Assembly: GCA_045657485.1 (NCBI GenBank)
Contig: JAZOTE010000063.1
Location: 34,006-98,005, forward strand
DNA from: Eubacteriales bacterium
GTDB lineage: Bacteria; Bacillota; Clostridia; Oscillospirales; CAG-272
Direction: 5' to 3'
DNA length: 64,000 nt
The notes below the pieces were generated by a model, which worked only from the letters and a program-made list of their open reading frames with translations, ran no database searches and was not told where the DNA came from. How positions within the stretch are numbered: the first letter of the stretch is position 1; every line of letters begins with the position of its first letter. Both the position numbers and the translations under genes were made by a program. Below are positions 36,960-51,350 of the stretch, in pieces.

Positions 36960-39900
36960 TTATCCCTTAGACTTGTTTTTTTCAGCGAGATTAGCTATGG
37001 TTTTAACCACGCGTGTAGGTGAGAGCCACCAGTCGCGGCACCATACGCGGATTATAGTCCAGCCTCTCGCCTCCAGGAATCTAGGCTTGTATACGTCGCG
37101 CTCCATAGATGATGCGGATGAAGCGAAGGCGTCCTTGTCAAGCTCTACACCGACGAGGTATTTGTCCGTTTCCTCATCGTAGACTGCCAGAGAAATACGG
37201 TTGTTCCTGTTTCCGAGTCCCGTGTGTACCTTGTATCCCTGCTTCTCCAGTCTTTCCTTGATCTGATCTTCGACGTCGGCGACCGTAGTAATCAGACTTT
37301 CAGCCTTCTTCTCAGCCGGGTCGAGATTTGCCAGCACAGCCTTTACGTGATCGGTGTCATTTTCGGATACCGCCCTTACGTATGTCAGATACTCACGCAG
37401 AAGCTTCGGACCTAAGTGCTTTGAGGTGTCAACCTTCAGTTCCTCAGGCTCAATACTCGTCACCACGATGATCTTTGACTTAGCTCTCGTGATAGCAACG
37501 TTCAGACGGTTTTCGCCGCCCTCGGTAGAAAGTGCGCCGAAGTTGGTATACAGCTTGCCGGCTTCGTTTGGAGCGTATCCGATAGAGAATATTATTATAT
37601 CTCTTTCATCGCCCTGTACGTTTTCCAGGTTCTTGATGAATAGGCTCGTGTCCTCTCCGTTATCCATTCTGTATTTTTCCTTGGTGACAATGGAGCGGAA
37701 CTCCGCATCGCGACGCGCCTCTCTATCAATAGCATCCGCGATACAGGATTGCTGATCGCTGTTGAAAGTGATTATACCGATGCTCTCGTTGTTTTTGCGA
37801 GTGATGAAAATATGTCTGAGAAGCTGAACGATTTTTTCGGCTTCTCCCGGATTCGTACGGTCGATCCATTTACCCTTTACCTTGAAGCGCTCGATAGGAC
37901 GGTTGAACTTGTTCGTCGAAATATTTGGAGCTATCTGCAGGTTGGAAGAGTAGAATGCGCTGTTTGAGAAGTCTATCAGCTCTTGATGTCGGCTTCTGTA
38001 GTGGTATGTAAGGTTTGCGCTGTCATATCTCGCAACCGCAAGATCCAGAAGGCTCTCAACCTCCAGCGCCGCCTGGACAGAGTAGTCGTCCTGGGTGTCG
38101 GGATCGGCGCCCATATATCGCTTCATAAACGTTGCGGAGGGGCGCAACTGCTTGGAGTCACCGGCAACCACGATATTCTTTCCGCGGTATATGGTTGGTA
38201 TCGTGCTTTCGATAAATACCTGAGACGCCTCGTCGAAGATAACCACGTCAAACATATTCTTCTTTAGCGGAAGAATAGATGAAACGTTCTCCGGCGAGAG
38301 AAGCCAGCAGGGGAACAGGGCGAGAATGAAGTCGCCGTATACGTCCATCGTCTGTCTGATAGGCCAGAATTTCTGTTCCTTTGATATCTGATAGAGGAAG
38401 TCCTTACCGTTGCTTGCGGCTTCGAACATATTGCGGTATTCACGGCTGTTTTTGTGAGCGCAGAGCTTATAGGCGATAGACAGCTGAGATTCCTTCAGCT
38501 TGTAGATTCTCGACGTGATGTTTACGAAATCCACAGTCTTTGCCAAATCGTCCTTGCATTCTTCCTCATAGCGTATTACCTCGTGATAAATACGCAGAAC
38601 GGGCGTTTTTGTAATAATATCCAGATAGTTCTGATAATTTCTGCTCGACATATATGCGAAATTCAGAACGGAGAGCATATTCTTATCGAGAGAGTAGATG
38701 AGCTTGCTCACATCGCGGAGGGTTATGTAATTATCAAGTGCTTCGTATACCAGCTTGATATAGGAAGTGTTTCCGCGGAGAATATTATCTATTACCGAGA
38801 TATAACCGTCACGGGTCATAACTCTGTTAAGGCAGTCGTATTCCTTAACGAATTCCTCAATGGCGTTTATGGTTTCTACGAATTTCTCGTGCATCTCCTT
38901 CTTGGACTTACCGCCGAAAGCGGAGGGATGTTCCATTTTGAAGGACATATTTACGACCGCGTTAAGTGATTTTTTGCTATCCATTTGAGAATAGTAAGCC
39001 AGCACCTGACGCGTGTACGGATATTTTGATATGTTGAAGAATCCCTTACGCGACTTCTGTATTTCCTCCAGAAGACCCTTTACCTCGCTGAGAGTTCTGA
39101 TATCGAGATCGGGCTTCATCGTGTCTATCAGCGGATTTTTTTCCTTTGCCTGAAGGAAAGCGTAGTACATCTCGTCGAGGTTCTTCGCCTTTATGGTGAA
39201 CAGCGCGTCGGAAAGTGCTTTATAATCCATAGACATAATATCCGGCTGCTCCACCATCTTCAGATATATGCTGTATTCGGAGGAGTTCTTGGATAGCATA
39301 TAGGACGACGAGTACATCTCCGAGAGCGAAAGTCCGAACGGGCGCTTATCGTTAAGCGTGTGATAGATTGTGTCCAGAGTAGCCTCTTCCAATGCTATGC
39401 GCTTTTCGATTTCGTCGTACTCATTCTGCAGAGCGGCTATATCCTCCAGACTGTCTACCTCATCCTTCTGATGAGCGGCAAAGCAACGCTCGTAGAACGT
39501 CTTTTTCTCCTTCGCCTCGTCGGTGACGTACATCGCCTTCTCGTTCAGCACGCCAAGACGCGAATAAACAACGTCCAGCGCAGCCTTCTTCTGCGATACC
39601 ACGAGAACACGCTTATCCTTTGCAATTGCGTCTGTGATAATATTAACTATGGTCTGAGATTTTCCAGTACCGGGAGGACCGTATATGACCATATTACCGC
39701 ATTTGTCGACCTTCTTGACGACCTCGGACTGCGCGTAGTCTAGCATTTTTACGATATAGCTGTGGCTGAGTCCTGTGCGCTTTGCCCTTTTGAGCGCTTT
39801 TGCACGATTTTTGAGCTTAGCCTTCTCAAGCGCCTGGATTTTCTTCGCGCCCCGTTTGCCACCGGTTCTCAGCAGCTCGTTTATTGCGTCGTTGGTAAGA

Positions 39901-40769
39901 TTTTTCTTCTCAAGCAAAGTATAGTCGTTATATATTGAGTTTGAGAGAGGGAAGCGTGCCATGACCGCGGCATACCGGACAGAGAGCTCTCCCTTTGCGT
40001 CCGGCTCCTTAAATCTTCCGTAATTGTATATATGCTTTGAGGTCGTGCACTCGATTTTTATCTTCGCGCGATTGAGATAGTCAACTACCTGCTTTACGTT
40101 TTTAAATGAAGATAAGTTTTCAAATTCAAGCTCCAGATTCTCAATATTAAGCTTCTTTGCCTGGGCGTATGCGAAAATGAACGCGCGATTGAGCTGGATA
40201 TTCTCCGACTCGTTCAGTCTGATTTCAACTGTGCTTTCGTCCGGTATCTCTATTTTTACGGGGAAGAGCAGAAGGGGCGCCTTGATCATGGTTTTGTTGA
40301 TTCCCTGATTTATAGCGCCAAATACGAAGGGATATCCTATGTACAGCTCGTATCTTCCGGTTTCTTTTTCTATTTCTTCGATCTCACGCTTTAATTCTTT
40401 GATCCTTGCGATTTCTGTTTCTACTACCTTTGCGCTGTCCTGAGCGGTGTGTTTCAAGTGCTTTTCGGTAGCGCGAGCAGCCTCGTCTGCCGACATTCCG
40501 CTAACGTCGGGAGCATTCTTCGAGCGTGCGGGAAGTCCTAGATTTTTAACTATTTCTTTACTTTCGTCTTCTGATATGAGAGTGAGGGGATACTTACTGC
40601 GTGACCAGAGAAAATCTATCATCTCCGCCACTTTATCGTCACGTCCCTCGAAGAGCCTGCCTATGTCGTAAGCGCCCTTTCTGACGATGTTCTTGAGATA
40701 AAGGCATCGGTTATTTCCGCCTATTTCTATCAGGCGTTCTTTGTAGTAGGTATAAATACCTTTTCCCAT
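36960..40769 (-). CDS. DUF4011-like / Upf1-DNA2-type SF1B helicase fused to C-terminal Vsr/DUF559-like (REase_MTES_1575-type) nuclease domain
   Basis: 1,269 aa from ATG 40769 (RBS AGGAG). Helicase motifs: IYGPPGTGKSQT, VIFDEASQV, VVAGDSKQLRP, YHYRSRHQELI, VQGDERDIIIFS and LNVAITRAKSKIIVV. C-terminus: ISLAVYDEETDKYLVGVELDKDAF...RDVYKPRFLEARGWTIIRVWCRDWW. Confidence 0.85.
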   Translation of the reverse strand: MGKGIYTYYKERLIEIGGNNRCLYLKNIVRKGAYDIGRLFEGRDDKVAEMIDFLWSRSKYPLTLISEDESKEIVKNLGLPARSKNAPDVSGMSADEAARATEKHLKHTAQDSAKVVETEIARIKELKREIEEIEKETGRYELYIGYPFVFGAINQGINKTMIKAPLLLFPVKIEIPDESTVEIRLNESENIQLNRAFIFAYAQAKKLNIENLELEFENLSSFKNVKQVVDYLNRAKIKIECTTSKHIYNYGRFKEPDAKGELSVRYAAVMARFPLSNSIYNDYTLLEKKNLTNDAINELLRTGGKRGAKKIQALEKAKLKNRAKALKRAKRTGLSHSYIVKMLDYAQSEVVKKVDKCGNMVIYGPPGTGKSQTIVNIITDAIAKDKRVLVVSQKKAALDVVYSRLGVLNEKAMYVTDEAKEKKTFYERCFAAHQKDEVDSLEDIAALQNEYDEIEKRIALEEATLDTIYHTLNDKRPFGLSLSEMYSSSYMLSKNSSEYSIYLKMVEQPDIMSMDYKALSDALFTIKAKNLDEMYYAFLQAKEKNPLIDTMKPDLDIRTLSEVKGLLEEIQKSRKGFFNISKYPYTRQVLAYYSQMDSKKSLNAVVNMSFKMEHPSAFGGKSKKEMHEKFVETINAIEEFVKEYDCLNRVMTRDGYISVIDNILRGNTSYIKLVYEALDNYITLRDVSKLIYSLDKNMLSVLNFAYMSSRNYQNYLDIITKTPVLRIYHEVIRYEEECKDDLAKTVDFVNITSRIYKLKESQLSIAYKLCAHKNSREYRNMFEAASNGKDFLYQISKEQKFWPIRQTMDVYGDFILALFPCWLLSPENVSSILPLKKNMFDVVIFDEASQVFIESTIPTIYRGKNIVVAGDSKQLRPSATFMKRYMGADPDTQDDYSVQAALEVESLLDLAVARYDSANLTYHYRSRHQELIDFSNSAFYSSNLQIAPNISTNKFNRPIERFKVKGKWIDRTNPGEAEKIVQLLRHIFITRKNNESIGIITFNSDQQSCIADAIDREARRDAEFRSIVTKEKYRMDNGEDTSLFIKNLENVQGDERDIIIFSIGYAPNEAGKLYTNFGALSTEGGENRLNVAITRAKSKIIVVTSIEPEELKVDTSKHLGPKLLREYLTYVRAVSENDTDHVKAVLANLDPAEKKAESLITTVADVEDQIKERLEKQGYKVHTGLGNRNNRISLAVYDEETDKYLVGVELDKDAFASSASSMERDVYKPRFLEARGWTIIRVWCRDWWLSPTRVVKTIANLAEKNKSKG

Positions 40770-40921
40770 TTTTTTCTCCTGTTCTATGTGATCCGCCGTG
40801 GGCGGTGTCAAATTTTATATCAAAGCTTTGCGATCGTAGCCGGTCGCCTATATTTGCCTGAAATGTACACTTAAGTATACTTAAATAAAGAAATAAAACA
40901 AAATATTTTATCACAACTTCA

Positions 40922-44732: not shown

Positions 44733-45044
44733 ATGATAAAGTTAACCGGATCGAATTTTAAATCCGAGGTAGAGGCATGCTCCACACTCGTGGTTATTGA
44801 TATTTACGCTGATTGGTGCGGACCATGTAAAATGCTCGCTCCCACGATCGAGGAGCTTGAGGTGGAAAATCCCGACGTTAAGTTCGCGAAAATAAACGTT
44901 GACGAGGAACGCGAGCTCGCTATGCAGTTTAAGGTACAGAGCATACCTATGATCGCGTTCGTTAAGGACAACACTCTTCTCGACGTATCGGTCGGCTACG
45001 TTCCAAAGGAAAAGCTCAGCCGTATGATAGGTGAGTACAAATGA
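44733..45044 (+). CDS. trxA: thioredoxin
   Basis: 103 aa with the WCGPC active site (DIYADWCGPCKMLAP). Confidence 0.95.
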   Translation: MIKLTGSNFKSEVEACSTLVVIDIYADWCGPCKMLAPTIEELEVENPDVKFAKINVDEERELAMQFKVQSIPMIAFVKDNTLLDVSVGYVPKEKLSRMIGEYK

Positions 45045-45238
45045 AGGTAAGATTCAACGAAAATAAGGAGATCGTAGAGTCGATAAAAGAGGGACTTCGC
45101 CGTACGGGCGGATACTGTCCTTGCCGTCTTGAGCGAACCGAGGATAACAAATGTATGTGTCGGGAGTTTAAGGATCAGATAGCCGATGAGAGCTTTGAGG
45201 GCTATTGCCACTGTATGCTCTATTATAAGGAGAAGTAA
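45041..45238 (+). CDS. ferredoxin:thioredoxin-reductase catalytic-subunit-like mini-protein
   Basis: 65 aa with three CxC pairs (CPC-x9-CMC-x15-CHC), reminiscent of the FTR catalytic chain. Its ATG overlaps the trx stop (ATGA). Confidence 0.65.
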   Translation: MKVRFNENKEIVESIKEGLRRTGGYCPCRLERTEDNKCMCREFKDQIADESFEGYCHCMLYYKEK

Positions 45239-45329: not shown

Positions 45330-45378
45330 AACGATGTCTGTGATTCCCTAGAGGACGGTAAGACATCGTTTTTTGTTT
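45330..45378 (+). terminator. rho-independent terminator after trx/FTR-like pair
   Basis: AACGATGTCT-21 nt-AGACATCGTT followed by TTTTTTG. Confidence 0.7.
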
Positions 45379-45403
45379 TGAAGAAATTTTTGTTTTGAAG
45401 AAA
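45370..45403 (+). repeat. perfect 17-bp tandem duplication (TTTTTGTTTTGAAGAAA x2)
   Basis: 45370-45386 and 45387-45403 are identical. The first copy overlaps the terminator U-tract. Confidence 0.9.
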
Positions 45404-45537: not shown

Positions 45538-45566
45538 TTGAACTGAATTGCGGTAAATGGTATAAT
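45538..45566 (+). promoter_or_regulatory. sigmaA promoter (extended -10) for the giant surface-protein gene
   Basis: TTGAAC-17 nt-TATAAT with TGg immediately upstream of the -10. Confidence 0.65.
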
Positions 45567-45600
45567 TTACCAAGAAAAAGAATATACAAGCGAGGTTTTT

Positions 45601-48600
45601 ATGAAAAAGGCAATTATCGTATCGGCGTTTCTTATAATTTTAGGAACACTTTTTTGCGTCAGACCGTTGGCAGCTGACGGTGGCGAGTACATAATCAGCG
45701 GAGATGGCGACGCATGCACGCTTTATATCTATGCCGACGGTGTACCGGAAGCTGTATGTACCGGTCCGCTCGGAGAGCTGATTGGTAAAACGTCGGGAAA
45801 GAGGGTAACGCTCGACGGCGTGGTATCACGGGGCAGAGTAGATATTCCGGACGGAAGCTATACCGTCAGCGGTACTCTGACGAGCTACGGAGATATAACG
45901 GTGCCTGAGGGGGTTCAGCTTAATCTCATAAAAGCTTCGATCGTTTTCGCCGATGAATGCGGTATGCTGGTAAGGGGCGGAGAGGTATATTCGGATGCTT
46001 CGGAGATCAGCTCGGAGATGGGTGTTGCGATAACGCTTGATTATTCTACATTCTCACGCTTCGTTATGACTGACAGTACCGTTTGCTCCTCAAACGGCAG
46101 CGCGGCGCTGTGCGTGAAGAGCGGAGAGGCGAAGCTTCTCAACGGAGAGATAACGAACGGAGGAGGCCCGGCAATTTACACGGACTCCTATATTACTCTC
46201 GGAGCTAAGCTTTCTGGAGTGGGAGCTGATATAAGGACGAACAAGCCTATCCGTCTTCTACCAGACTATACTCCTGATTCAACGGTCAGAATAGCCTATA
46301 ACAGTAAATTTGAGAACGGTAGACTTACGGAGATCGTATACGGCGCTACAGGTTCAAGTATTAGCGGATTTACACTTACGGATGCGGATGGAAGGGCGGA
46401 GGAGCTAACTTATTTCAGCTCCCATAGCTCAACGTCCTCAGAAGATTTCCTTGCAGTATATAAGCCGTACAAGGTCAGAACGCATATAGGCGGCGTTATC
46501 AGCGAATCGGAGTATCTCTTTGGAGAGGCTTTATTACCTCCTTTTGCGCAGGCGCCGACGGGCTATAAACTGGCAGGATGGTATACCGACAGGGAATATA
46601 ACACCTCGCTTGCAGGCGATGCGCGCGTAACGGATAATATGGATATTTACGCGAAATTTACTTTGCTGCCGCCAAACTTTACCGCATCCACCTTGGAGTT
46701 CGTATACGACGGAGTGGAAAGACGGTTGGGGATAGAGAATCTATCCCATATTCTTGACGGTTCGGGAGGAATGTATAGCTTTGAGTGGGAGCTAAACGGA
46801 GAAACTGTAGGAAGAGGAAGCTTTATATCGGTCGGAAAGGTTAGGGACAGCGGAATTTACACTTGTAAAATAACCTACAGACACGGAATATCGGAGGTTA
46901 CGGTCACAGTTAACGATATTACGGTGTCGGTTCAGCCCGCGACTGTCACGATACCTACCTTGGATGAGCTTGAATATACGGGCAGTGATATTGTACCGTT
47001 TCTTCCTACCTCACCTCTTTACGAGGCTGAAATAACGTCGGCCGTTTCTGCAGGAACATACCCTGTGAGGCTCAGACTTACAGATCCTGAAAATTACAAT
47101 TTTTACGGTACGGAAGATGATGAGATAAACGTATATTACAGGGTAAAAAAAGGCGAAAATACTTGGCAGAAAGAGCTTTCTGTATATAATGTATACGAGG
47201 AAGTCGTACCGAATTTTGAAGCAATTTCAAAATTCGGAGAGGTAAAATACTTATATTCATCGGCTTGTGACGGAGCATATTCCGAAGTTATACCGACCGC
47301 CGCCGGAACGTATTACGTCATAGCGATCGTTGAGGAAACGAACGATTTTACGTCGCTCAGGTCTTCGCCACAGGAGTTCCGGATTCTTCCGGACGGCGTA
47401 GATCATATTCTTATATCCTCGATGCCGAATGTTACGGAATATCGTGCGTTCGATACCTTTATTCCCGACGGATTGAGCGTGATAGCATATTATCTGAGCG
47501 GCAGAAGCGAAACCGTAACCGCCGAAAGACTGTCGGTTTCTTATCAGCAGGGAGGCTCGTTTCTTTATGGAGATAACGCGGTATTCATTTCATATTTGGG
47601 CGCGCGTACGACTTGCAAAGTAGAGGTCGGACGAGCCGTGTATGACTTATCATCAATAAAGTTTGACTCCCGCGTTACTACCTATTCTTCCTCTTACCAG
47701 AGTATATCTCCTTCTCCCGATTATTTGGTTGGCTTGGATGGAATACCGCTTTATTTTAATTTATCCGGCGGAGGAATGAACGTTGGGGAATACGAAATAA
47801 CTTTGTCGTTTACTACGGACAGTCAGAATTATATCATTCCAAATTCTTTAACCGCAAAATTAACGATTGTGCCGTATACAGCAAAAATAACGTGGCAGAA
47901 TACAAATTTTGTGTATAACGGTAATATTCAATCCCCTCTGGCTTTATACGTGGACGTGCACGGAGCGATCCGTTACGCTATCGTCAGCGGCGGCGCAGTT
48001 GACGCAGGAGATAATTATACTGCGACAGCGGCTTCACCCGATCCGAATTATACTCTGACTGAATCCCAATGCGGCTTTTCTATAGCCAAAGCGGACTACG
48101 ACGTAAGCGGCGCTGTATGGAGCGATACAGAGCTTTCCTATACGGGCTCCCCTTTGTCCGTTTCGTTATCCGGACTTCCAAGCGGACTTTCGGTTATTGG
48201 TTACGTCGATGCGATAGGTACTGATTGCGGAGAATACATCGCGCGCGCAATTCTCTCCTATGACGAAACAAACTACAATTCGCCCCCAACGCTTACGCAT
48301 AAATGGCGCATTGCTCCTATTGAGTATGACGTAGGAGGGTACAGCTTTGATAACTCTCAATTTGTATATGATGGTAAGATTCATTATCCCGCTTTTTTCG
48401 GAGAGATGCCTGTCGGTATAGACGGTTACCCTCTTGGTTATAGCTTCTCCGGAGGCGCTACTCACGTTAGCGAAGGCAGGGTAGAGGTTACCGTAACGTT
48501 TAGTACGGAAAGTAAAAATTACGTCCTGCCTCTGCCGATAACTCTGTACGTTGAAATACTTCCTCTCGGTATAAACGTAAGCTGGATCGGAGATGAGTTC

Positions 48601-50664
48601 GTTTATTCGGGCTCACCGATTTCTCCTACAGCCTATTCTCCGTTTACCGAAATTGCAGTGTGGGGAGAAGCAGTAAACGCCGGAGAGCATCTCGCACTTT
48701 GCCGCTCCTTGAATACTGATTACTTCGTCCTAAACGCTGAGCATCCGTTTAAGGTAAAAAAAGCAAGCAATCGCTGGCTCGTTACACCGGGTATCACGGA
48801 TGTTTACGAGGGGCGGTTGCCGTTGCCCGTCGGCGAAGCCCTTTACGGTGCTCCGGAATATTCGTATTATTCCGATCCCGACTGCGCAAATCGGGTCGAA
48901 TCGTTCTCACCCGGCGTTTATTACGCGATAGCCTCCGTCGGAGAAAGCGAGAATTATCTCCCCCTTCTTTCAAAGCCTATCAGCTTTCAGGTAATTGAGG
49001 TCGTTCCCGTAAAGCTCGTTGCCGTCTTGCTTGCAGAACGTCTTACCGCGTTTTCCTGCGTAGAGGATTCGGATATCAGCCTTAGCTTGCGTTATAACGA
49101 CGGTTCAAGCTACGGTATTCCGCTAAGTGAAGCTACGGTTTCTTATCAGTCGGCAGATAGCTTGCGCCGCTTCGATACCGGGGTGAGCTTTTCTTACGGC
49201 GGATTTTCCGTGGAGCTTCCTCTCACCGTTGAATACGCGCAGTACGATCTGTCCGCTGCACGCTGGTCGCAGGATGTTTTCATATACGATTCTCTTCCAA
49301 AGCTTCCCGAACTTTCAGGCTTACCTGTCGGAGTCAGCGTTAAGGGATATTCCATATCACCGGTTACTAATGCGGGAGTATATTCGGTTAAAGCCTATCT
49401 TTCCTATGACAGCGAGAATTATCTCGAACCGCAGCTGCCGGCGTATAGCTTTAAGGTATTACCGTGCAGCGTTCCGATTCCGAAAATAGATGGCAGGGAA
49501 TACGACGGAAACTATTACATTCCGCAGTCACCGTCCTATCTTTACACCTACAGTGAGATAGTACCGGAAAGATTTGTCGGGGAATACTATCTTCTCGCCG
49601 GTCTATGCGATCCCGTTAACTACGTTTTCGAGGACGGTACGGTGGCGCAGTCGGTTTGCTACAGCATAACGCCACGCACCCTATACTTCACAGTATCGGA
49701 TTTTGATCTGTATTTATGGGAAACGGAGATAAAGCCTCAATTCATAATGTCGGGCGGCGAGGTGATAGAGGGCGATGACCTTATGCTGAGCGCGCAGGTG
49801 CTTGACGGAGTGATAACGCTAAGGACGGAAAACCCAAACTATAGGCTGTCAGTTAGCGAGGGCAGGGTGAACAGTCTTGGGTATCCATCTCCGGAAGTAA
49901 CCGCGATAATCATTATAACGGTGCTTTTGCTTCTCGCGTTTACACTTTTTGCTATCGTACTGTATTCGGAACGGGAGCGCATACTTGATTTCATTGCCAT
50001 TGTTCGTTACAGATGCTCCGGTAAAAAGCGTTTATCGGAGGTTCGCGTGGGAGATGCCTGCATCGGAAAATCTCTTGGCAATGTATCAGTCTGCGAGGAG
50101 GATTCAGAACCTGCGGATACGGAATATTGCCCTGAAGCTCCTCTTTACGACGACTCAACGGATGACTCGGAGTGCGTAGATACAGAAAATGATACAAATA
50201 ACAGTGAACGGAAAAATGATGGATATGAGGATGACCGAAAAGAAGAGTGTTCGCTTATCGACGGCAGTATCCTGGAGGAAATAGAATCGGTCGATTCCGA
50301 ACGGGCGGACGTTCTTATTACCGACTCTCTGGCAAAAAATCTCCTGAAGCGAAGGAGAGAGATCGTCTTTACTGACGGTGACGGTAGATCGGTAATAAAC
50401 GTCGATACCCTGAGCCGCAATTTCAGTCGGGGCGACAGAGTAGACGTTAACGTATTAAAAGAAAGATGTCTTATACCCTACGACACTGCCTATCTTAAAG
50501 TTCTCGCCAGAGGCGCTCTGGATAAAGCTCTCTCCGTATACGCCAACGATTTCAGCCTATCCGCAGTAAAGATGATAGCTCTGACCGGAGGGGAGTCCGT
50601 GCGCGTAATTACGCGCAAACCGAAAGCAAATGACGAAAAAGTTAAAAATACGCATAAAAATTAG
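45601..50664 (+). CDS. 1,687-aa type-I membrane surface protein: signal peptide, beta-helix-like region, Listeria-Bacteroides-type repeat, at least 8 MBG/Ig-like repeats, one TM helix, acidic cytoplasmic linker, uL15-like C-terminal domain
   Basis: Signal peptide MKKAIIVSAFLIILGTLFCVRPLAA. GYKLAGWYTDREYNTSL...DIYAKF. Recurrent modules (F/Y)xY(D/N/T/S)G...P...(A/V)G.Y...NY. TM helix VTAIIIITVLLLLAFTLFAIVLY (49897-49965). The tail VINVDTLSRNFSRGDRVDVNVLKERCLIPYDTAYLKVLARGALDKALSVYANDFSLSAVKMIALTGG aligns by eye to the bacterial uL15 C-terminal half. Confidence 0.85.
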   Translation: MKKAIIVSAFLIILGTLFCVRPLAADGGEYIISGDGDACTLYIYADGVPEAVCTGPLGELIGKTSGKRVTLDGVVSRGRVDIPDGSYTVSGTLTSYGDITVPEGVQLNLIKASIVFADECGMLVRGGEVYSDASEISSEMGVAITLDYSTFSRFVMTDSTVCSSNGSAALCVKSGEAKLLNGEITNGGGPAIYTDSYITLGAKLSGVGADIRTNKPIRLLPDYTPDSTVRIAYNSKFENGRLTEIVYGATGSSISGFTLTDADGRAEELTYFSSHSSTSSEDFLAVYKPYKVRTHIGGVISESEYLFGEALLPPFAQAPTGYKLAGWYTDREYNTSLAGDARVTDNMDIYAKFTLLPPNFTASTLEFVYDGVERRLGIENLSHILDGSGGMYSFEWELNGETVGRGSFISVGKVRDSGIYTCKITYRHGISEVTVTVNDITVSVQPATVTIPTLDELEYTGSDIVPFLPTSPLYEAEITSAVSAGTYPVRLRLTDPENYNFYGTEDDEINVYYRVKKGENTWQKELSVYNVYEEVVPNFEAISKFGEVKYLYSSACDGAYSEVIPTAAGTYYVIAIVEETNDFTSLRSSPQEFRILPDGVDHILISSMPNVTEYRAFDTFIPDGLSVIAYYLSGRSETVTAERLSVSYQQGGSFLYGDNAVFISYLGARTTCKVEVGRAVYDLSSIKFDSRVTTYSSSYQSISPSPDYLVGLDGIPLYFNLSGGGMNVGEYEITLSFTTDSQNYIIPNSLTAKLTIVPYTAKITWQNTNFVYNGNIQSPLALYVDVHGAIRYAIVSGGAVDAGDNYTATAASPDPNYTLTESQCGFSIAKADYDVSGAVWSDTELSYTGSPLSVSLSGLPSGLSVIGYVDAIGTDCGEYIARAILSYDETNYNSPPTLTHKWRIAPIEYDVGGYSFDNSQFVYDGKIHYPAFFGEMPVGIDGYPLGYSFSGGATHVSEGRVEVTVTFSTESKNYVLPLPITLYVEILPLGINVSWIGDEFVYSGSPISPTAYSPFTEIAVWGEAVNAGEHLALCRSLNTDYFVLNAEHPFKVKKASNRWLVTPGITDVYEGRLPLPVGEALYGAPEYSYYSDPDCANRVESFSPGVYYAIASVGESENYLPLLSKPISFQVIEVVPVKLVAVLLAERLTAFSCVEDSDISLSLRYNDGSSYGIPLSEATVSYQSADSLRRFDTGVSFSYGGFSVELPLTVEYAQYDLSAARWSQDVFIYDSLPKLPELSGLPVGVSVKGYSISPVTNAGVYSVKAYLSYDSENYLEPQLPAYSFKVLPCSVPIPKIDGREYDGNYYIPQSPSYLYTYSEIVPERFVGEYYLLAGLCDPVNYVFEDGTVAQSVCYSITPRTLYFTVSDFDLYLWETEIKPQFIMSGGEVIEGDDLMLSAQVLDGVITLRTENPNYRLSVSEGRVNSLGYPSPEVTAIIIITVLLLLAFTLFAIVLYSERERILDFIAIVRYRCSGKKRLSEVRVGDACIGKSLGNVSVCEEDSEPADTEYCPEAPLYDDSTDDSECVDTENDTNNSERKNDGYEDDRKEECSLIDGSILEEIESVDSERADVLITDSLAKNLLKRRREIVFTDGDGRSVINVDTLSRNFSRGDRVDVNVLKERCLIPYDTAYLKVLARGALDKALSVYANDFSLSAVKMIALTGGESVRVITRKPKANDEKVKNTHKN

Positions 50665-50674
50665 CAGATAAACC

Positions 50675-50703
50675 TTGAAAAAAACAAAGTAATGTGCTAC
50701 AAT
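50675..50703 (+). promoter_or_regulatory. sigmaA promoter for ECF S-component gene
   Basis: TTGAAA-17 nt-TACAAT, with TGc directly upstream of the -10 (extended -10). Confidence 0.7.
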
Positions 50704-50754: not shown

Positions 50755-51297
50755 ATGAGAAACAGCTCGATTAAAAGCGTTAATGTTGAAAAGCTTGTAT
50801 ACGCAGCGGTGCTCACCGCATTGGTGGTTGTTCTGCAGTTCATTCCTATTAGATTCGGTACCTTCGAGCTCGCTTTGTCTGTTCCGATCATTGTTGTAGG
50901 AGCGGCGATATGCGGAGCTACGGTCGGCGCTTGGCTTGGCTTTGTATTCGGTTTCGTTGTTTTGTTTCTTCCCGGCACGGCGTTATATATGGGCATCGAC
51001 GTGTTTGGTACTATCGTCACGGTTCTCGCTAAGGGCGTTCTCGCCGGTCTTCTTTCGGGACTTGCCTACAGGGTAGCAGTCGGCACTAACAGATACGTGG
51101 CGTGTTTTATAGCCGCTATAATCGCAACAGTCGTTAATACCGCGGTATTCATCTTAGGCTCGTATATATTCTTTGATCAAAACATCTTCGAGCTTTTAAA
51201 ATATTTGATTAGCATCAATTTCGCTATTGAGCTTGTTGCTAACGTCGTGCTCGTCCCCACAATTTACCGTATAATTAGCATTAAGAGGAAAATTTGA
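50755..51297 (+). CDS. ECF-transporter substrate-specific (S) component-like membrane protein, substrate unknown
   Basis: 180 aa, ~6 TM helices, N-terminal pattern KLVYAAVLTALVVVLQF typical of ECF S components. No EcfA/T genes nearby. Confidence 0.65.
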   Translation: MRNSSIKSVNVEKLVYAAVLTALVVVLQFIPIRFGTFELALSVPIIVVGAAICGATVGAWLGFVFGFVVLFLPGTALYMGIDVFGTIVTVLAKGVLAGLLSGLAYRVAVGTNRYVACFIAAIIATVVNTAVFILGSYIFFDQNIFELLKYLISINFAIELVANVVLVPTIYRIISIKRKI

Positions 51298-51350
51298 ATG
51301 ATAGGGCTACTCTTCAAGGTAGCCCTTCGTCTTTAGTGACGGTGTGAAAA

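Follow-up and report, generated by a model that had tools for sequence, protein, structure and literature searches.

A surface repeat protein of 1687 amino acids (aa) from a Eubacteriales bacterium ends in a tail that is a duplicated, repurposed copy of the globular C-terminal domain of ribosomal protein uL15, and that is not itself a ribosomal protein. The tail belongs to the Pfam domain family PF00828, but lies outside the uL15 ribosomal protein family. The gene lies in what we call the window, that is, the whole 64,000-nucleotide stretch of contig JAZOTE010000063.1 that was analysed, and the listing of open reading frames (ORFs) confirms its position, 45601..50664 (+), with 1687 aa and a stop codon, as given by a first-pass annotation made from the sequence alone. 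Judged from hydropathy and domain content, the gene product is a predicted type-I (bitopic) envelope protein. Relatives were surveyed in one genome per bacterial species, which gave 492 stretches encoding a relative; all locus counts below refer to the best 80 of these 492. The parts of the gene and its product are the following.

45601..50664, + strand: surface repeat protein with uL15-like cytoplasmic tail (complete ORF; collinear orthologues, 80 loci)
45601..45675, + strand: Sec-type signal peptide, about aa 1-25 (KK n-region, hydrophobic core, PLAA followed by D; sequence inspection and hydropathy)
45676..46512, + strand: N-terminal head module, about aa 26-304 (no Pfam or PDB sequence match)
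46513..46656, + strand: Listeria-Bacteroides / InlB B-repeat-like domain, aa 305-352 (Flg_new, sub-threshold here; matches in the family)
46657..49896, + strand: array of divergent MBG / Ig-like (Big_3, Ig_2) modules, aa 353-1432 (family-level Pfam matches and a module hidden Markov model, HMM)
49897..49965, + strand: single transmembrane (TM), stop-transfer helix, aa 1433-1455 (strong Kyte-Doolittle peak, then SERER...RYRCSGKKR)
49966..50289, + strand: acidic, poorly conserved cytoplasmic linker, aa 1456-1563 (net charge about -19, isoelectric point (pI) 4.1)
50290..50616, + strand: conserved cytoplasmic module, aa 1564-1672 (predicted local distance difference test score, pLDDT, above 90 throughout in an AlphaFold2 (AF2) model; 64% median identity)
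50392..50595, + strand: PF00828 (Ribosomal_L27A / uL15) match, aa 1598-1665 (Pfam; homologous to uL15 positions ~74-142)
50617..50664, + strand: short basic C-terminal tail (RKPKANDEKVKNTHKN) and stop codon (pLDDT 55-77, pI 10.6)

The uL15-like tail

The first-pass annotation had lined up the last ninety or so residues by eye with the C-terminal half of bacterial uL15, and database searches bear this out. Pfam matches the segment to PF00828 with an E-value of 6.9e-10 (39.7 bits with the whole protein as query, 45.2 bits with the isolated tail; gathering cutoff 21.5) over model positions 1-70 of 72, and the same family is matched in all 28 full-length relatives (best E 7.7e-13). Sequence searches of the PDB, both by phmmer and with a profile, return uL15 chains only, the best of them from Enterococcus, Listeria, Staphylococcus and Bacillus. 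The top match, residues 74-142 of E. faecalis uL15, has an E-value of 3.7e-12 with the family profile and of 6e-8 with the single sequence, and the alignments of the tail consistently start at uL15 residue ~73. For aa 1561-1687, AF2 run with 49 relatives gave a model with a mean pLDDT of 92.5 and a predicted template modelling score (pTM) of 0.83, and when this model was compared with the PDB by Foldseek, the top 50 matches were all uL15/L18e ribosomal chains. Superpositions on uL15 chains typically have root-mean-square deviations (RMSD) of 1.2-2 Å over 70-78 columns at 30-43% identity; for Listeria uL15 (8uu5_N) the RMSD is 1.7 Å over 75 columns, at 33% identity. The Pfam and the fold matches together speak for real homology, and the two outcomes that would have spoken against it, an empty Pfam search and an empty structural search, did not occur.

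The tail shares with the C-terminal domain of bacterial uL15 (RplO) not only the fold, but also the motifs VNLD.L, K(V/I)L..G and FS..A...I..AGG. It differs from uL15 in that it has no arm, fails the equivalog model, carries an extra helix pair and has several lysines replaced. TIGR01071, the rplO equivalog model, aligns at positions 74-142 of its 144 only. The Gly/Lys/Arg-rich N-terminal arm of uL15 (profile positions 1-73), which makes deep contacts with rRNA, is absent, and the protein has in its place the acidic linker and a helix that is without counterpart in uL15. A genuine or alternative ribosomal protein was considered and rejected, because the TIGR01071 scores of 27.5 bits (whole protein) and 32 bits (tail) are far from the cutoff of 77.95, and because the arm is missing. 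The settings of the two domains differ as well. While uL15 is a soluble protein of ~145 aa, encoded in the spc operon beside secY, the domain in the window is the end of a 1687-aa membrane protein, and its gene is flanked by thioredoxin/ferredoxin:thioredoxin reductase (FTR)-like genes and by genes for an energy-coupling factor (ECF) S-component, an RluA-family protein and an AlaX-like protein, not by a ribosomal operon. A second PF00828-like sequence was not found within the window. The most likely origin of the tail is a duplicated Firmicutes rplO.

In the model, the confident fold begins ~35 residues before the PF00828 match. The module consists of a family-specific helix pair and a beta-hairpin (ERADVLITDSLAKNL...), packed on an alpha/beta domain that resembles the C-terminal domain of uL15; neither the two short helices (ERADVLITDSLAKNLL) nor the hairpin has a uL15 counterpart. 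About 30 positions are invariant in the tail family, and its motifs are A(D/E)xL(I/M)xDxxAxxL, I(I/V)N(V/I)DT(L/I)S..F, KVLARG and, at the extreme C-terminus, DFS(L/I)xA(V/I)KMI..GG, which the window protein carries as ERADVLITDSLAKNL...VINVDTLSRNF...KVLARG...NDFSLSAVKMIALTGG. Where Firmicutes uL15 has two conserved lysines in VKAxKFS, the tail family has Y and D (VYANDFS), and its KMIA stands in place of EAIE. The basic stretch that ends the protein has a family median net charge of +4 in ~17 aa.

Ectodomain and membrane topology

The ectodomain had been described in the first-pass annotation as a signal peptide, a Listeria/Bacteroides-type repeat and a series of MBG/Ig-like modules, which is essentially right at the level of the family. 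The N-terminus of the window protein, MKKAIIVSAFLIILGTLFCVRPLAA followed by DGG, is built like a Sec signal, with n-, h- and c-regions, and a hydrophobic N-terminal segment is present in all complete orthologue ORFs (n = 69) but L002. The head module behind it is confined to the size class of ~1600-1800 aa, and is found in 41 of the 80 loci. For the next domain, the window protein scores 23.8 bits against Flg_new (PF09479, aa 305-352), below the cutoff of 27; Flg_new is matched in 17 of the 28 full-length family members (best E 6.9e-12), and the family profile matches the InlB B-repeat at ~aa 293-362 (E 9e-7). The modules that follow are recognized mostly through the family. Pfam counts in the same 28 members are 15 for MBG_3, 13 for Big_3, 12 for Ig_2 and 1 for MBG_2, and the window protein alone gives weak Big_3 and Ig_2 matches and no match to MBG (PF18887 / PF18676). 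As a self-BLAST of the window protein detected no internal repeats at 1e-3, an HMM derived from the family was needed to make them visible. Built from the family alignment of module 756-830, it recovers at least five further units, at 708-749, 840-892, 915-979, 986-1054 and 1220-1275.

With its signal peptide, its module arrays and its acidic ectodomain (pI 4.4), the protein resembles the InlB B-repeat/MBG/Ig-like surface proteins of Gram-positive bacteria. It differs from them in the way it is held, namely by a stop-transfer helix and a cytoplasmic region of ~230 aa in place of an LPXTG, SLH or GW anchor. No [LIVS]Px[TSAG]G motif, and hence no LPXTG, occurs anywhere in the window protein, nor does an SLH or GW-type wall anchor. 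A sortase-anchored adhesin was therefore rejected, both because LPXTG is lacking and because 232 aa with a folded domain follow the TM helix. The gene also differs from those of variable adhesins in being single-copy, syntenic and vertically inherited.

Our topology calls are heuristic; they use hydropathy profiles and counts of charged residues for the window protein and 79 relatives. Hydropathy confirms the single TM helix at 49897-49965 that had been proposed. Only one of the 80 loci, L065, lacks an equivalent helix (its ORF is cut at the contig edge), and in all complete orthologue ORFs a strong TM helix lies upstream of the uL15-like domain, with an extra weak hydrophobic peak in a few. 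A signal peptide and exactly one further hydrophobic helix place the tail of proteins of the window type in the cytoplasm. The positive-inside rule, which is satisfied across the family, agrees with this placement: the 15 residues on the C-terminal side of the helix contain on average 4.1 K+R, compared with 2.5 on the N-terminal side, and the C-terminal side has the larger number in 61 of 79 loci. Soluble relatives without a signal peptide, to which we return below, likewise imply that the domain is cytoplasmic. An outside location of the tail, which had been named at the outset as a finding that would undo the original proposal, is thus not what the combination of signal peptide, extracellular-type repeats and one stop-transfer helix indicates.

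Between helix and module lies the linker, whose acidic character had also been recognized early (aa 1456-1565 hold 32 D/E and 13 K/R, pI 4.1), and which is probably disordered. It is not conserved, being alignable in only 4 of the 80 loci, and the distance from helix to domain varies from 37 to 219 aa (median 76).

Like the RsgI-type anti-sigma factors of cellulolytic Clostridia and other one-pass trans-envelope sensors, the window protein has extracellular binding modules, one TM helix and a conserved cytoplasmic domain, the latter being more conserved than the ectodomain; it differs from them in orientation, its cytoplasmic domain being C-terminal, and there is neither sequence kinship nor a nearby sigma factor. 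By analogy, one could imagine a regulated proteolysis of the RsgI/RseA type with reversed orientation, in which a ligand of the ectodomain, or a load on it, would trigger cleavage near the TM helix and free the uL15-like module into the cytoplasm. Extracellular binding modules, a single helix, a flexible linker and the most conserved domain on the inside would suit such a mechanism, as would the existence of free, soluble versions of the module in other lineages. However, the neighbourhood in the 80 loci contains no conserved site-2 protease, sigma factor or regulator, and many family members have no sensing ectodomain; we consider this mechanism improbable.

Orthologues and relatives of the module

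By their labels, the best 80 loci all stem from uncultured Clostridia, Eubacteriales, Oscillospiraceae or "Ruminococcus" metagenome-assembled genomes (MAGs) of gut or rumen. The host ORFs rebuilt in these loci comprise 69 complete ones of 679-1916 aa, which fall into four size classes, and in 67 of the 69 the uL15-like domain is at the extreme C-terminus. In the two exceptions, L004 (5264-11014, 1916 aa, with extra TM helices) and L010 (6887-11149, 1420 aa), the giant ORF runs into the ECF S-component gene, which is due either to a sequencing error at the stop codon or to a genuine read-through fusion. A profile search of 1.84 billion representative proteins yielded 3118 clusters (at 50% identity) with E<=1e-3, 312 of them with E<=1e-30, and the best cluster matches are mostly proteins of 1600-1800 aa with the domain at the end. 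The median identity to the window protein differs strongly between its parts:

N-terminal head: 29% (41 loci only)
Repeat region: 38-40%
Linker: essentially none
Tail: 64%, the most conserved part

The genes that flank the giant gene are conserved as follows (loci out of 80):

Acyl-ACP thioesterase: 62
Thioredoxin (upstream): 57
ECF S-component: 27
RluA-family pseudouridine synthase: 78
AlaX-like protein: 72

Collinear orthologues and conserved flanking genes together mark the window gene, as far as comparison of sequences can tell, as a core gene that a clade of uncultured Clostridia from gut and rumen carries in one copy and passes on by vertical descent; the tail is the most constrained part of its product. 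One locus, L024 (CAVEOF010000051.1), is labelled Coriobacteriaceae but resembles the Eubacteriales locus L022 (1759 and 1757 aa, TM helix at 1496-1514, close N-termini), and is probably a mis-binned contig.

The same comparison bears on the question of whether the architecture could be an artefact, with the C-terminal part being a separate gene that was joined by a frameshift or a chimeric assembly, or with the tail being extracellular after all. Some metagenomic gene calls do split the gene (P0049/L083, L082), and many database entries are short fragments of 100-220 aa. The split calls sit, however, on short or gapped contigs, and the 69 complete, continuous ORFs come from independent genomes and assemblies and have their parts in the same order, which effectively refutes a join. 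As a signal peptide and exactly one more hydrophobic helix leave the tail no place but the cytoplasm, we give an artefact hardly any credence.

The observation is more general than the first-pass annotation could know. In the most divergent relatives that we traced, the helix and the uL15-like module occur without an ectodomain, in N-anchored, short and soluble forms. The short forms (P0223, of 359 aa, and L081/L082) have an N-terminal TM helix without positive charge before it, an acidic Pro/Glu spacer and three PKPKRTRTKKP repeats, and then the helix and the uL15-like domain. In P0223, the anchor is of the N-out kind and is followed by SRKRENK. Tandem EEPAPEPAA and PKPKRTRTKKP(T/A)E.A repeats precede the module in L081 (8961-10342), L082 (4094-4949) and P0223, and assemblies contain breaks or frameshifts within these repeats, so that gene prediction yields no more than the final 113 aa, labelled as a "ribosomal protein".

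The N-anchored class was found by a metagenome scan seeded with the divergent branch. Its members, of 370-690 aa, consist of a hydrophobic anchor, an (EEPxx)n spacer, a middle domain of ~170 aa, the helix and the uL15-like domain, and their neighbours are ADH-like, GntR and ABC genes. Both the short and the N-anchored forms fit the positive-inside rule with the C-terminus inside. In L137, L142 and L146, the N-terminal ~120 aa contain a borderline Flg_new match (27.4 bits, with a cutoff of 27) directly after the single N-terminal anchor.

Giants of >2775 aa combine an ectodomain, a TM helix, a positive loop, a hydrophobic segment of 40 residues with a central P..Q, a KKK and then the cytoplasmic set; one giant of this size carries two middle domains. 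Turn-inducing residues in long hydrophobic segments favour helical hairpins. The 40-residue stretch of these two-segment giants, with its central Pro/Gly/Gln, is expected to form such a hairpin, which would place the tail inside again, beside the KKK.

The soluble forms, of 190-264 aa, have (EEKRLAEEKAK)n repeats and no hydrophobic segment, followed by the helix and the uL15-like module. They occur in L084-L086 and L090-L112 (for example L084 8001-8597 and L095 8001-8318), on human-gut contigs of up to 578 kb, and always in the gene order gmk-rpoZ-peptidase M32-X-rpsL-rpsG-fusA-tuf, where X is the soluble gene. Two lineages of X exist, with ~70% mutual identity.

The middle domain of ~170 aa (L125, L132, L117, L126 and others; P0227-P0239) precedes the module, in some proteins as two copies, and there are also proteins in which it stands by itself after a membrane anchor. 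It has no Pfam match, and its rough consensus is ...RY.KSF.AKLIQS...YY.ELKNE.LSYK...SR.SW...GR...KF.IRGKTL.LYLALDP.DY..TKYKVE... The AF2 model of the domain (pLDDT 90.5) is closest in fold to a Listeria YdhG-like protein and E. coli YjbR (Foldseek probability 0.96 for both) and to B. subtilis YdhG (0.77). In L144, two Pfam YjbR domains (42 bits) occupy the position of the middle domain. Domains of the MmcQ/YjbR (PF04237) and YdhG/DUF1801 kind, with a double-wing / CyaY-like fold, thus precede the uL15-like module in the wider family, though not in the window protein. The YjbR/MmcQ domain has been described as a "double-wing" fold (PMC7641849).

Seen across these forms, the evolutionary unit is an anchor (in most cases), a long spacer, an optional YjbR/YdhG-like domain or two of them, and the helix with the uL15-like domain. 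We infer that the giant ectodomain is a lineage-specific addition to this core, and not the reason why the module exists.

Gene context and possible function

Signals and genes around the giant gene were also examined. The features on its 5' side are these:

45331..45379, + strand: intrinsic-terminator-like hairpin and T-run (RNAfold -14.8 kcal/mol), closing the upstream thioredoxin / FTR-like unit
45538..45566, + strand: promoter-like site (TTGAAC, 17-nt spacer, TATAAT, TG extension; 10/12 in a consensus scan)
45592..45595, + strand: Shine-Dalgarno-like GAGG, 5 nt 5' of the ATG (read off the sequence)

The upstream terminator and the extended -10 promoter that had been suggested are both present, the former with the stem ACGATGTCT...AGACATCGT and then TTTTTTGTTTT (hairpin at 45331-45369), the latter as a consensus match only. 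As for the suggestion that the gene is monocistronic, it has start signals of its own, but a terminator was not detected between its stop codon (50664) and the ECF S-component gene that begins at 50755, and the two genes may be co-transcribed. A second promoter-like site lies in the gap between them (50675-50703), and a terminator-like hairpin (51303-51326) lies 3' of the S-component gene. The latter gene (50755-51297, +), 90 nt 3' of the giant gene, is solitary, without adjoining ECF A/T genes. On the other side, at 44733-45238 (+), the thioredoxin gene overlaps by 4 nt (ATGA) with an ORF for a Cys-rich protein of 65 aa, which matches the FTR catalytic chain (PF02943, 26 bits) and which fell below the size cut-off of our neighbourhood survey. 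Further upstream, an ORF of 1283 aa on the opposite strand (36960-40811, -) is ~81% conserved in the three closest loci. Across the 64-kb window, a search against Rfam gave no match at or above the gathering score of a family. A mobile, defence or phage element was considered and rejected, since there are no PADLOC or PHROGs matches and no composition anomaly, and since housekeeping synteny is conserved.

We suggest, tentatively and with a little less than even confidence, that the module is a cytoplasmic hook on a membrane tether, with nucleic acid or ribonucleoprotein as its favoured ligand. Spaced off the membrane, the uL15-like module would bind a conserved intracellular macromolecule, more likely a nucleic acid or a ribonucleoprotein than a lineage-specific protein, and in the window protein the hook would physically join this ligand to the surface stalk, or report its presence. 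The recurrent design of anchor, long spacer and terminal globular domain counts in favour of this idea. Hints to nucleic acid come from the YjbR/YdhG-like domains, the PKPKRTRTKKP repeats next to the module in the short forms, from the basic C-terminal tail, and from the descent from an rRNA-binding protein.

Several observations weigh against this suggestion. With a median pI of 6.3-6.8 in two classes, the core of the domain is close to neutral, as are the C-domains of canonical uL15, and its sequence shows no obvious basic patch, so that an electrostatic signature of RNA binding was not found there. In the window protein, the linker beside the module is strongly acidic, not basic, and the middle domain is absent. 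In fold, the middle domain matches YjbR/YdhG with weak E-values (0.04-0.2), and DNA binding by YjbR is itself only a prediction (PMC7641849). The gene neighbourhoods are housekeeping and heterogeneous. Finally, in proteins of the L137/L142/L146 type, Flg_new, a normally extracellular domain, and the uL15-like module share one side of the membrane, which means either that the Flg_new domain is also used in the cytoplasm, or that these proteins have the opposite topology.

A more specific version of nucleic acid binding is close to what the first-pass annotation had proposed, namely a coupling between adhesin and ribosome. Of this proposal, the uL15 homology and the cytoplasmic placement stand. 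The link from surface to ribosome does not stand as the conserved core of the family, as the module occurs without any ectodomain, and ribosome coupling is not the most parsimonious reading of the family architecture. In this version, the anchored domain would bind 23S rRNA, immature 50S subunits or ribosomes at or near the uL15 site, and would hold ribosomes or assembly intermediates at the membrane under the surface protein, or sense them there. Evidence for it can be found in the homology itself, with the fold and the core motifs N.D.L, KVL..G and FS..A...I...GG retained, in the strong conservation of the tail across species, as expected if the partner is as conserved as the ribosome, and in the gene contexts: the soluble relatives of both lineages are always directly upstream of rpsL-rpsG-fusA-tuf, and the window gene is syntenic with genes for RluA-family and AlaX-like proteins.

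On closer inspection, these contexts lose weight. Between the soluble gene and rpsL there is a hairpin as well as a strong promoter-like site (TTGACT, 17 nt, TATAAT), so that their adjacency is not an operon, and the neighbours of the N-anchored class are unrelated to translation. In the window, rluA lies behind the intervening ECF S-component gene and the hairpin at 51303-51326, and the giant gene has its own upstream terminator and promoter; an operon link to translation genes is thus not supported. The domain itself also argues against binding at the uL15 site. The N-terminal arm is missing, the lysines of VKAxKFS and the EAIE motif are replaced, the core is not more basic than canonical uL15 C-domains, and the family-specific helix pair packed on the domain has no uL15 counterpart. 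Moreover, in mature ribosomes the site is already filled by uL15 itself. We therefore regard it as unlikely that the module is a membrane-bound receptor for ribosomes, pre-50S particles or rRNA that docks large subunits at the envelope and is joined there to a surface stalk. If it were, it would resemble the C-tail of YidC, FtsY and mitochondrial Mba1/mL45 in contacting the large subunit from the membrane; to our knowledge, none of these is homologous to the globular domain of a ribosomal protein.

The module could instead have a protein-protein or structural role without any nucleic acid, be it as an oligomerization or docking domain, with the cytoskeleton, the divisome or a secretion or sorting factor as candidate partners, or as a folded plug that retains and positions the surface protein. 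Charged residues that are invariant in the family and unlike canonical uL15 (R in LARG, D in DFS, K in VKMI), the conserved amphipathic helix A(D/E)xLIxDxLAxxL and the neutral domain core all fit such a role, as do the heterogeneous gene contexts. In addition, the lack of LPXTG makes the TM helix and the tail the sole anchor. Yet for a mere anchor, 64% identity and ~30 residues that are invariant in hundreds of species would be more than is needed, and neither the soluble forms nor the recurrent company of YjbR-like domains and basic repeats would be expected. Overall, we judge a role of this kind to be rather unlikely, and prefer the idea of a hook for nucleic acid or ribonucleoprotein.

In the literature that we searched, there was no paper on a uL15 fusion, an extraribosomal uL15 paralogue, a reuse of the domain, or a membrane-tethered uL15-like family, and in a 2023 review of the extraribosomal functions of bacterial ribosomal proteins, uL15 appears only as a gene of the spc operon. 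The family of membrane-tethered uL15-like modules is thus undescribed in the literature searched, and its member in the window adds an exapted tail to a repeat surface protein. Databases automatically name the relatives "uL15 family ribosomal protein" or "ribosomal protein L15/L18E". For the membrane proteins of the family, these names are misannotations, and the use of PF00828 as a single-copy ribosomal marker would over-count in genomes that bear the family.

The uL15-like module marks thousands of sequence clusters in gut Firmicutes. It is small, folds confidently in silico and is directly open to in vitro work, even though its hosts are uncultured. Even as a protein binder, the module would be a new family of cytoplasmic domains in bitopic surface proteins. 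Should it be a ribosome receptor, this would point to a previously unknown way of localizing or sensing translation at the Gram-positive cell surface. And if it binds ribosomes, rRNA or other nucleic acid, the family would represent a new class of membrane tethers in Gram-positive bacteria, and a clean case of exaptation of a ribosomal protein domain.

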